64,000 nt of DNA. It comes from Methanothrix sp. (GTDB taxonomy: Archaea; Halobacteriota; Methanosarcinia; Methanotrichales; Methanotrichaceae). A program made the position numbers and the translations under genes. The stretch covers positions 1-64,000 of the forward strand of contig JAXGJB010000002.1 in the NCBI GenBank assembly GCA_040770465.1. The letters run 5' to 3'. The notes beneath the pieces were generated by a model. The model was not told the origin of the DNA and made no database searches. It saw nothing but the letters and a program-made list of their open reading frames with translations. This document shows, one piece after another, positions 47,228-49,390 of this stretch (position 1 is the first letter of the stretch; the number at the start of each line of letters is the position of its first letter).

Positions 47228-48346
47228 TTATTTGAACCGTTTGACGAAGGACTTGTCGATCCAGCTCTTGAAGGTGTAGATGATCCTCTTGGGGATGGGG
47301 ACGCAGAGGTCGCCGTAGATCCCGACGGCGCAGCCGCATCCCGTAGTGATCAGGGCAACGGGGCTATCGGTGGACGCCCTGATCGAGTACGGTTTCAGAT
47401 CCTCCCCCTTAGCGACCCTCGCCAGGTTCCTTGCGGTGTGCTTCGCCTGGATCTCCGCCTCCATCCCGGTCTTGGTGGCGAGCTTCCCGTCGATCTCTAT
47501 CCAGGCGCAGTCTCCGATGGCGAAGACGTTCTCGCAGCCCAGAACTCTGAGGTACTGGTCGCATAAGAGCCAGCCGCTTCTCTTCGGGAGGTCCATGCTC
47601 TCGATGATGGGGGCGGGCCTGATCCCCGCCGTCCAGATCGTCATCTCGCAGTCCAGGGCGGTGCCATCGGCGAAGGTGACGCCGTCGTCTCGGATCGATT
47701 CGACCCGTCTGTTCGTCAGGACCTCGACGCCCTTTCCCTTCAGGATCTCGTCCATCAGGATCGAGGCGTTCTTTGAGAGGGTTGGGAGGAGACGGTCCAT
47801 CATCTCGACGACGTATATCGTGCAGTCCGCGTTCTCCGCCAAAAAGCAGGCAGTCTCGATGCCGGTTGGGCCCGACCCGATGATAGCGATCTTCTTCGGG
47901 CGTTTCTTCTCGACGAACCGCCTCGCTTTGACCGTATCCTCCAGGGTGTTGATGGAGAAGGCCTTCTCTGCCCCCTCGACCCCGAAGTAGTTCTGGACCG
48001 CGCCGGGGGCGAGGACGAGGATGTCGTAATCGAGATCGTTCTCTTCGCAGACAACCCTTCTGTCGGCGAAGTCGATCCTGAGGGCCCGGTCCCTGACGTG
48101 GACAGCGTTCATCTTCATGCAAAAGGGTTCCAGGGGGGCGGTCATGTCCTTAATCTCGATTTTTCCTCCGAGGTAGTCGGGGTAGAGGGCCTGACACTCG
48201 ATCCTCTCCTTCGGCTCGACGAGGACCAGGTCCGTCCCCCACTTGGTGGCGGCATTTCTCACCAGCTCTGCGCCGCCTACGCCTCCGCCGATCACCACCA
48301 CTCGCAAGAGGTCGCTCTTCCGCAAATCCATCTGCCGCATCTCCAC
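47228..48346 (-). CDS. FAD-dependent pyridine nucleotide-disulfide oxidoreductase (NDH-2/SQR-like)
   Basis: VVIGGGVGG, YDILVLAPG, IIGSGPTGIE, WTAG, VFAIGDCA. Confidence 0.88.
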   Translation of the reverse strand: MEMRQMDLRKSDLLRVVVIGGGVGGAELVRNAATKWGTDLVLVEPKERIECQALYPDYLGGKIEIKDMTAPLEPFCMKMNAVHVRDRALRIDFADRRVVCEENDLDYDILVLAPGAVQNYFGVEGAEKAFSINTLEDTVKARRFVEKKRPKKIAIIGSGPTGIETACFLAENADCTIYVVEMMDRLLPTLSKNASILMDEILKGKGVEVLTNRRVESIRDDGVTFADGTALDCEMTIWTAGIRPAPIIESMDLPKRSGWLLCDQYLRVLGCENVFAIGDCAWIEIDGKLATKTGMEAEIQAKHTARNLARVAKGEDLKPYSIRASTDSPVALITTGCGCAVGIYGDLCVPIPKRIIYTFKSWIDKSFVKRFK

Positions 48347-48599
48347 CTCAAACCCGACTTTATCCTGCAGTCATCGGTCATAAGGTCTTCGATGAGCTGG
48401 TTGCGATCAAGGGACGATCCCTTTGCCGTCACCGTATCTTGCAGGGCTGGCGGCACAGCCCGCCCGAACACGAATCTATCTACGCATATTTTTCTTTTGT
48501 CATCTTTACTCTTTGACGCAACTCATAACATTATTCGAATCTATAACAGATAACTATTTAAGATAGCACCTCCAATTGGACCAAAGGAGGTGAGATTCC

Positions 48600-48692
48600 A
48601 TGAGCCTGAGAGTCAAGATCGCCTTGCTCAATGCATTGCTATATCTTATTATGGCTTCTCCTGCCCTTGCCATCGTTGTAGTTAAGAGATGA
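48600..48692 (+). CDS. 30-aa small protein MSLRVKIALLNALLYLIMASPALAIVVVKR (signal-peptide-like)
   Basis: GGAGGTGA RBS at 48586-48593, TATTTAAG box near 48555; below the ORF-track size cutoff. Confidence 0.65.
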   Translation: MSLRVKIALLNALLYLIMASPALAIVVVKR

Positions 48693-48827
48693 GATGTACT
48701 GTGGGTTGCTCGCTAAACCACCAATTTCTCTATTTTATTCTAAAACTTTGTATCAACCACACAGACAAAAACTTGTATTTTATGGGGCAATGTCTGTTGT
48801 AAAAAAAATCCCCCCCACCCTTTCAAC

Positions 48828-49247
48828 TCATAATCTTCTGCGGATGATCGAGAAGGAAGCCGAGGTCTGAGAGAGGACCGGCCCGTCGGCCGAGTCCGCC
48901 GTCACCCTCCCTTCGGCGAAGGCGACCTGCCGTCCCACCTTTGCGACCCTCCCGCGGGCGACGACCTTTCCATCCCGGGCACCCTGGAAGAAGGTGGTGG
49001 TCTCCGATATCGTCGCGATCCTGTCCTCATCGTCGAGGGCGGTGAAGAGGGCGAGGGCCATCGCCTCGTCGGCGAGGGCGGTGTAGATCCCCCCTTGCAT
49101 CCACCCCGCGCCGTTTTGCATATCGGGCCTCACCACCATCTGAAGCTCAGCCTCTCCGTCGCCGAAACCGACGACCTCGATCTCCATCAGTTTGAAGAAG
49201 GGGTTCGCCTCCCTACCCCTCTTTCGAATCTCTCCGAGGTAGCTCAT
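48828..49247 (-). CDS. PaaI family thioesterase (hotdog fold)
   Basis: NPFFKLM, NGAGWMQGG..TALADEAM, ATIS, KVGRQVAFAEG. Confidence 0.88.
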   Translation of the reverse strand: MSYLGEIRKRGREANPFFKLMEIEVVGFGDGEAELQMVVRPDMQNGAGWMQGGIYTALADEAMALALFTALDDEDRIATISETTTFFQGARDGKVVARGRVAKVGRQVAFAEGRVTADSADGPVLSQTSASFSIIRRRL

Positions 49248-49390
49248 CTTATCGTCTCCACCATCAAGACCGGTATGTAAAAGCCTTTTGGGGGGCGTCC
49301 GTTCGAGAACGTCTCCGAGACGAAAAGGGCCCATTCGATACCGTCTTCGATACCAAAAAGTGATATCCGTTCGGGTTGAAGGATCTCGTC

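Follow-up and report, generated by a model that had tools for sequence, protein, structure and literature searches.

A 30-codon gene family of Methanotrichaceae with a conserved leader and exchangeable short tails

In the genome of a Methanothrix species, an open reading frame (ORF) of 30 codons lies by itself between two genes that are read from the opposite strand. Is so short a frame a gene at all, and if it is, does its product act as a precursor that is cut on export, as a small protein that stays in the membrane, or as a toxin? We addressed these questions in the window, that is, the whole stretch of 64,000 nt analysed here (contig JAXGJB010000002.1, positions 1 to 64,000), and by comparing the locus with other genomes. 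The genome that holds the window is referred to below as G000.

The locus and its expression signals

The ORF runs on the plus strand from the ATG at 48600 to the TGA at 48692, and its product is MSLRVKIALLNALLYLIMASPALAIVVVKR. It is placed inside a 481-nt spacer (48347–48827) between two minus-strand genes annotated with Pfam and NCBIfam: a Pyr_redox_2 flavoprotein oxidoreductase on the left (47228–48346) and a hotdog-fold thioesterase on the right (48828–49334). The GC content is 0.40 over 48500–48799, compared with about 0.6 in the flanks. Residues 1–24 form the leader (48600–48671, plus strand), featuring R4 and K6 in the n-region, a hydrophobic core at residues 7–19 and the c-region S-P-A-L-A, while the tail IVVVKR (residues 25–30) occupies 48672–48692 on the same strand together with the TGA stop.

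A putative TATA-box-like promoter block is located at 48552–48568 on the plus strand; it contains TATTTAAG at 48555–48562, and its centre is approximately 42 nt before the ATG. DNA alignment of the loci of G000, G007, G005 and G018 revealed that the block is near-identical in the first three and lies at the same distance from the ATG, and that G018 has an AT-rich TATATAT at the matching distance. Upstream of the block, the sequence could not be aligned. The A+T content of the region from −60 to −25 was 49–86% at all 23 family loci (23/23), and from sequence we infer a promoter function for the block. The Shine–Dalgarno-type ribosome-binding site (RBS), GGAGGTGA, occupies 48586–48593 on the plus strand, 6 nt before the start. 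A GGAGG-type core ending 8–11 nt before the start codon was likewise present at 23 of the 23 family loci, including paralogues with other tails.

Downstream of the ORF, 33–48 nt past the stop, a T-rich tract (48725–48740, plus strand) represents a candidate archaeal terminator. It is weak in the G000 copy, with 11 T in 16 nt and without any run of five T; across the family, a run of at least five T was found within 80 nt past the stop at 14 of 23 loci, and A runs at 7 of 23. The gene is free-standing and probably monocistronic. An earlier note on this DNA had read a TATA-like block, an RBS, an ATG, a TGA and the encoded product from the letters, and each of them lies where that note had placed it. 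It had also called the ORF hidden, a description that needs one correction: the exact 30-aa sequence is already present in NCBI, JGI/IMG and ENA gene calls, on six contigs, although it carries no name there. Close relatives are on record as "hypothetical protein".

The peptide and the spacer matched no Pfam or NCBIfam family at E ≤ 1. The Rfam search identified no family on the spacer, the only match being a chance one to sR20 elsewhere (E 6.1), and no tRNA was found over the spacer. A scan for sigma-70 promoters and hairpin terminators returned nothing, these models being not applicable to archaea. 

A sequence-run search gave six metatranscriptomes with small shares, and contigs were obtained from four of the runs. 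These contigs cover 48000–48341 and 48948–49172, which corresponds to the flanking genes only, and are uninformative on the ORF. RNA contigs of two runs stop at 48337 and 48341, near the annotated oxidoreductase start at 48346. On the other side of that start, approximately 60 nt just upstream of the oxidoreductase gene (48347–48410) are 80–88% conserved in eight genomes of the same genus. This conservation exceeds the expectation for a spacer, and the stretch may be a 5′ UTR, a promoter or an N-terminal extension.

Conservation of the frame across genomes

The G000 genome contains 68,783 candidate small ORFs (sORFs) of 18–80 aa, so a lone 30-codon ORF is not in itself evidence of a gene. What places this ORF beyond chance is its conservation, since full-length matches without an internal stop occur in other genomes. 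A first search of 41 relatives recovered such full-length, stop-free matches in G007, G005 and G018, the latter belonging to another genus; the G007 orthologue shares 90% identity at the protein level and 77% at the DNA level. With a profile built from G000 and these three orthologues, full-length matches at E < 1e-10 were obtained for 9 of the order's 105 genomes, which represent four genera.

Among nine orthologues, the third codon position varies in 27 of the 30 codons and the second in 11 of 30. NG86 dN/dS values range from 0.05 to 0.37 in 30 of the 36 orthologue pairs, and the remaining six pairs are saturated at synonymous sites. Conservation of the DNA begins at the TATA-like block, spans the RBS and the ORF, and collapses past the stop codon. 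Judged by these comparisons, it is near certain that the ORF is a genuine gene maintained by purifying selection. The earlier note's proposal of an expressed micro-protein is thus upheld, as to a coding gene that brings its own TATA-like box and RBS, by the cross-genome conservation and the dN/dS values. The case also shows that genome data alone can suffice to validate a gene of 30 codons.

The contrary explanation is that the ORF is not a gene, having arisen by chance in a promoter/terminator spacer or remaining as the stump of a longer secreted protein. Its location, flanked by the terminator end of one minus-strand gene and by the promoter end of the other, would agree with this, as would the lack of a Pfam or NCBIfam match and the single relative, P0003, that reaches 75 aa. 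Neither origin accounts for the dN/dS values and the codon-position pattern, nor for a length and a stop that stay constant across four genera despite saturated synonymous sites, and the genomic contexts of the copies differ. The oxidoreductase promoter, for its part, needs no more than about 110 nt, because the corresponding spacer in G011, which lacks the cassette described below, is that short. We therefore find a non-gene origin hardly credible.

P0003, an NCBI record of 75 aa, is alike over its first 30 residues and continues for 45 more, which could reflect a lost stop or a sequencing error. The earlier note had named two outcomes that would speak against its reading, a lack of conservation and homologues that continue as a long secreted protein. 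Neither was encountered: the family is conserved, and one of approximately 35 copies is longer than 33 aa. An all-against-all search of a library of 1.84 billion representatives returned two true relatives only; P0001, another candidate from this library, was rejected as a repeat-protein artefact.

Distribution and genomic neighbourhoods

A broader profile identified the gene in 13 of 392 genomes of the class, which belong to four Methanotrichaceae genera and, in one case, to a second family (G000, G005, G007, G018, G051, G071, G072, G074, G090, G095, G102, G108 and G374, with G374 being the carrier from the second family). The frame, the length of about 30 codons, the GGAGG site and the stop are all kept in the 13 carriers. 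Twelve further copies were found on metagenome contigs, and four copies lie on GTDB contigs labelled Methanotrichaceae or Methanothrix. A profile of the leader matched 4 of the 59 species in the genus of the second family. At E ≤ 0.001, the leader profile found nothing in 333 genomes from other families of the phylum, outside the class. G000 itself holds no paralogue, as no second match better than E = 7 was obtained among its 68,783 sORFs, and 25 pattern matches on IMG/VR viral contigs included no relative. Across the searched genomes, the gene family is thus patchy in Methanotrichaceae and extends to a small number of genomes from a second family within the class.

The copy in G044 may be a pseudogene and was not counted, because no start codon lies directly after its in-frame stop. 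In G374 (contig C4), the second copy of a tandem pair (L107 1501–1593) has CTG instead of ATG or GTG and an intact RBS. This copy and the start-less one of G044 (L026) could be decaying or using non-canonical starts. As a separate observation, four sORF candidates in G000 received identical scores (contigs C27:16634–16771, C42:5062–5199, C4:11293–11430 and C8:12293–12430), which points to a repeated element with at least four copies.

The surroundings of the gene differ from carrier to carrier. The oxidoreductase/thioesterase setting is common to G000 and G005 only. The G018 copy lies between a PcrB-family gene and a malic enzyme gene, those of G095 and G072 between an unknown ORF of 650–750 aa and a NOG1-type GTPase, that of G051 among acylphosphatase-domain genes, and those of G108 and G074 next to a methyltransferase. 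The seven ORFs around the G007 copy match nothing in Pfam or PHROG. The G102 copy (L049 512–4638) is near a family B DNA polymerase, a nuclease with phage-family matches and several ORFs of no family; phage-family annotation of this neighbourhood covers the polymerase, the nuclease and one unknown family, and the locus may be an integrated mobile element. Integrase or transposase fragments lie near the copies in G043 and G090.

No receptor, peptide transporter or protease was linked to the gene in 15 Pfam-annotated neighbourhoods, and no neighbour recurs between genera. A 74-aa TPR fragment lies near the G366 copy only, and an OPT transporter gene adjoins the G090 copy only. What the earlier note had seen at one locus, the lack of a receptor next to the gene, accordingly holds at all 15.

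In G000, the gene is carried by an AT-rich cassette of about 0.4 kb (48420–48828) that is present or absent as a block between syntenic genes. G005 has the cassette; in G011, a genome of the same genus, the oxidoreductase and thioesterase genes are approximately 70–110 nt apart with no cassette between them (L008 1461–1625). An imperfect direct repeat on the plus strand, identical at 17 of 22 positions and exact over its first 10 nt, has its left copy at 48519–48540 and its right copy at 48824–48845, over the thioesterase stop. The two copies are 305 nt apart and bracket the promoter-to-terminator unit. This repeat is suggestive only, because the estimated chance expectation of a 10-nt exact repeat in 531 nt is about 0.1–0.2. 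Together, the patchy distribution, the low GC content, the cassette-free G011 and the repeat point to a small cassette that has been gained and lost, and the ~0.4-kb block has the appearance of a unit that was inserted or deleted.

Mobility of this kind would also suit a type I-like membrane toxin, an alternative raised in the earlier note, in which an antisense or overlapping small RNA would hold translation down and the cassette would be a selfish or stress-response element. The small, hydrophobic product ends in basic residues, and by prediction it could be a small membrane peptide of the kind that such toxins are; the family is patchy, the cassette moves between otherwise syntenic genes, some copies have integrase or transposase fragments (G043 and G090) or family-less genes (G007) as neighbours, and one tandem pair was found. 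Known type I toxin mRNAs are tightly folded and so hide the RBS, whereas the predicted mRNA of the G000 copy shows no more structure than its shuffles: its minimum free energy is −34.3 kcal/mol, the shuffles average −36.07 (z = +0.46), and 135 of 200 fold at least as well. Synonymous sites vary freely, G000 has a single copy, and viral contigs gave no relative. Strong purifying selection on a specific tail, combined with exchangeable tails on one leader, is foreign to the known toxins. With no support from the fold test and only a single copy in G000, a toxin appears very unlikely.

Leader, tail and the boundary between them

Copies of the VVVKR type keep the tail [IV]V[VI]VKR across four genera with differing codons. 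In these copies, 2 of the 6 tail positions vary, by I/V exchange only, while 15 of 24 positions differ in the leader, chiefly through exchanges between hydrophobic residues; some copies carry three extra residues after K-R. Within the alignment, this combination of a variable leader and a conserved tail is the pattern usual for a signal peptide and its mature part.

Because the hexapeptide is not the variable part among orthologues, leader-only profiles (A4 and A5) were built on residues 1–24 alone. Searching with the leader recovered the orthologues and, in addition, sORFs of 29–33 aa that combine the same leader and the same GGAGG-spacer-start arrangement with unrelated tails. All matches at E ≤ 0.001 were short frames. 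The paralogues have leaders of 23–24 residues and tails of 5–10 residues, and leaders of the VVVKR type are on average 44% identical to those of the other copies. Copies with other tails were found once each in G043, G345, G366 and G372. G374 has five copies, four of them with other tails, and its tandem pair, with members about 90 nt apart, consists of one other-tail copy and a VVVKR-type copy. Two paralogue tails from different organism families share their last four residues. The ESM Atlas search returned just unnamed clusters of 30–33 aa.

The leader-only search gave a positive answer to a test set beforehand in the earlier note, which had asked for relatives with the same length and an A-x-A site but another C-terminal peptide. 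Its expectation of a variable C-terminal peptide was borne out for the paralogues, with their unrelated tails of 5–10 residues, but not for the VVVKR orthologues, in which the hexapeptide is the most conserved part.

The tandem pair of G374 lies in a region of approximately 2 kb on contig C4 (L068 5500–7600) that contains no ORF longer than 81 aa. Directly downstream of the pair is an 81-aa ORF with a signal-peptide-like start, and a few further small ORFs in L068 open with a hydrophobic stretch. Small exported peptides may be clustered here as an island.

Throughout the family, conserved sequence gives way to unrelated sequence immediately behind the A-x-A. Across 19 distinct leaders, position −1 is A in 18 and G in one, and position −3 is A in 10, G in six, and S, V and T in one each, so that both positions are small and uncharged in 19 of 19. 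The first seven residues contain exactly two K/R in all 19 leaders, P occupies position −4 in 12, and a helix breaker (P or G) is present within the last six leader residues in 17. The apolar core measures about 13–14 residues, and position +1 is never Pro among the translated family members. The leaders thus show the n-/h-/c-region layout of Sec-type (class I) signal peptides and keep to the −3/−1 small-residue and +1 non-Pro rules. Since the A-x-A ends the alignable part, the −3/−1 rule marks this boundary as a candidate signal peptidase I site. Archaeal signal peptidase I is described as cutting just after the H domain (PMC6098224).

The best candidate for this enzyme in G000 is a 258-aa protein (contig C29:4431–5207; L112 1441–2217). 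It reaches 40.1 bits against the archaeal model TIGR02228, where the cut-off is 51.85, and aligns with profile positions 7–61, the N-terminal third, only; it has no Pfam match, PF00717 scoring below its cut-off. The G000 genome is 94.85% complete; either this lineage has a divergent signal peptidase I, or the ~5% that the assembly lacks includes the true gene.

Two further classes of processing signal were considered and rejected. The class III (pilin-like) motif is [KR]-[GAS] directly before the hydrophobic stretch; here K6 is followed by I7, and only 23–24 residues would remain. PGF-CTERM-like archaeosortase signals close a large secreted protein with a signature tripeptide, a full membrane helix and a cluster of basic residues; here six residues follow P-x-L-A, and no protein lies upstream.

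Export or retention in the membrane

The best reading of these features is a Sec-type pre-peptide that would release a short tail peptide, a reading we hold tentatively, at somewhat less than an even chance. Targeting, topology, cleavage, release and any role are inferred here. The finished peptide would be targeted to the membrane post-translationally by its Sec-type leader and would insert with the N-terminus inside, so bringing the short C-terminal tail to the outer face. Signal peptidase I would cut after A24 of the A-x-A and free the hexapeptide IVVVKR, and in the paralogues the same leader would deliver other peptides of 5–10 residues. Candidate roles for the freed peptide include those of a signal, an antagonist or an envelope-associated peptide.

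Left uncut, the 30-mer might instead stay in the membrane as a single-pass micro-protein, one helix that binds or tunes a membrane complex in the manner of the M. mazei small membrane proteins and of many bacterial ones, with the variable tails as its short exposed ends. We regard this as quite possible, if doubtful, and several features speak for it. In the VVVKR type, four hydrophobic tail residues lengthen the apolar stretch to 22 residues (7–28) with R/K at both ends, and AlphaFold2 predicts an unbroken single helix over residues 3–29 (pLDDT 85.5); both would fit a retained membrane helix and count against a pre-peptide. An outward move of the C-terminal K-R would conflict with the positive-inside rule. 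K6, Y15 and M18 are conserved beyond what a signal peptide or hydrophobicity would generically require, which also counts against the pre-peptide. The nearest named ESM Atlas clusters are N-terminal membrane segments of sensor kinases, with scores of 0.82–0.87 that make them leads only. Archaeal precedents are described for the sORF_05 product (PMC11456600) and sP24 (bioRxiv 10.1101/2025.10.28.685009). The pre-peptide reading is weakened further by the lack of a linked receptor, transporter or protease and by the sub-threshold score of the signal peptidase I candidate.

What membrane retention leaves unexplained is the boundary between conserved and unrelated sequence exactly after the A-x-A, with the −3/−1 rule kept in 19 of 19 leaders. 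Moreover, paralogues with polar tails have about 13–14 apolar residues followed by a c-region such as G-S-A-x-A, which is short for a stable membrane span, and no partner gene co-occurs nearby. The architecture of the family favours the pre-peptide over the retained micro-protein.

If the pre-peptide is cut as proposed, a signalling role for the tail peptide is possible. The more specific idea, that the family represents the first ribosomally made, Sec-exported short peptide signals in Archaea, sensed via an unlinked receptor, seems to us unlikely. If true, it would mean cell–cell communication or kin discrimination in filamentous, aggregate-forming acetoclastic methanogens. By their record titles, the carriers belong to the Methanothrix-type methanogens, which in both digesters and wetlands are the dominant producers of methane from acetate. 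These organisms form filaments and granules, settings where signals between cells would matter. The family offers a concrete, testable candidate that combines clear evidence of translation from genome comparison, a textbook cleavage site and, as built-in controls, naturally occurring tail swaps. Should the peptide stay in the membrane, it would still define a conserved, mobile micro-protein family, very few of which have been characterised in archaea.

Comparison with known systems

Gram-positive bacteria and their phages characteristically make peptide pheromones from very small genes, and among these the RRNPP precursors run to about 40–48 aa. The earlier note had likened the ORF to Phr, PapR and AimP, and the comparison carries over in part. 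Phr, PapR, NprX and AimP are described as joining an N-terminal Sec-type signal peptide, which signal peptidase removes, to a C-terminal active peptide (PMC7564271), a layout that the predicted leader and the tail of the present family share; as in the Phr/PapR type, the leaders of paralogues are related and the mature peptides differ. The adjacent receptor does not carry over. RRNPP systems have a TPR receptor gene next to the precursor gene, whereas the present family has no conserved neighbour and its 15 annotated neighbourhoods are without a receptor. RRNPP precursors also contain a pro-region that needs more proteases, whereas here the tail begins directly at the A-x-A, and they are bacterial or phage-encoded, whereas the present family is archaeal. 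Searches of Pfam, NCBIfam and the 1.84 billion representatives found no sequence relationship to RRNPP precursors, and the family shows none to the SHP/PrgQ type either.

In size and build, the family is closer to SHP and PrgQ, which are described as products of free-standing genes of about 20–35 codons with a basic N-terminus and a hydrophobic body (PMC7564271). The mature hydrophobic peptide of this type corresponds to the C-terminal 7–9 residues, and wild-type SHP1358 has a precursor of 23 aa and a mature form of 9 aa (PMC7564271). Unlike the pre-peptide proposed here, SHP/PrgQ-type peptides are, in the same account, matured in the membrane by Eep and exported by PptAB, with no A-x-A cut (PMC7564271). 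They are also paired with an adjacent Rgg or PrgX regulator and confined to Bacillota.

Type I toxins such as Hok, TisB, Ibs, Ldr and AapA share with the family a length of about 20–50 aa, a single hydrophobic helix, an often basic end and a patchy distribution, as described in PMC2887945 and PMC8309996. They differ in that the mRNA is unstructured here, in that no sequence relationship exists, and in that tail swapping is foreign to them.

The literature searched yielded no archaeal peptide-pheromone precursor and nothing on Methanothrix small ORFs, although the supplementary tables of PMC11456600 could list similar sORFs. Within Archaea, the sORF_05 product and sP24 of M. mazei resemble the family in being encoded by an sORF or sRNA and in having one hydrophobic helix (PMC11456600; bioRxiv 10.1101/2025.10.28.685009). 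According to the same sources, membrane association was shown for both, sP24 has one predicted TM helix, and sP24 is specific to M. mazei strains (bioRxiv 10.1101/2025.10.28.685009). The descriptions available for these M. mazei proteins, by which alone they are compared here, report no leader combined with interchangeable tails. Set beside all these systems, the leader-plus-tail architecture of the present family is new and previously undescribed.
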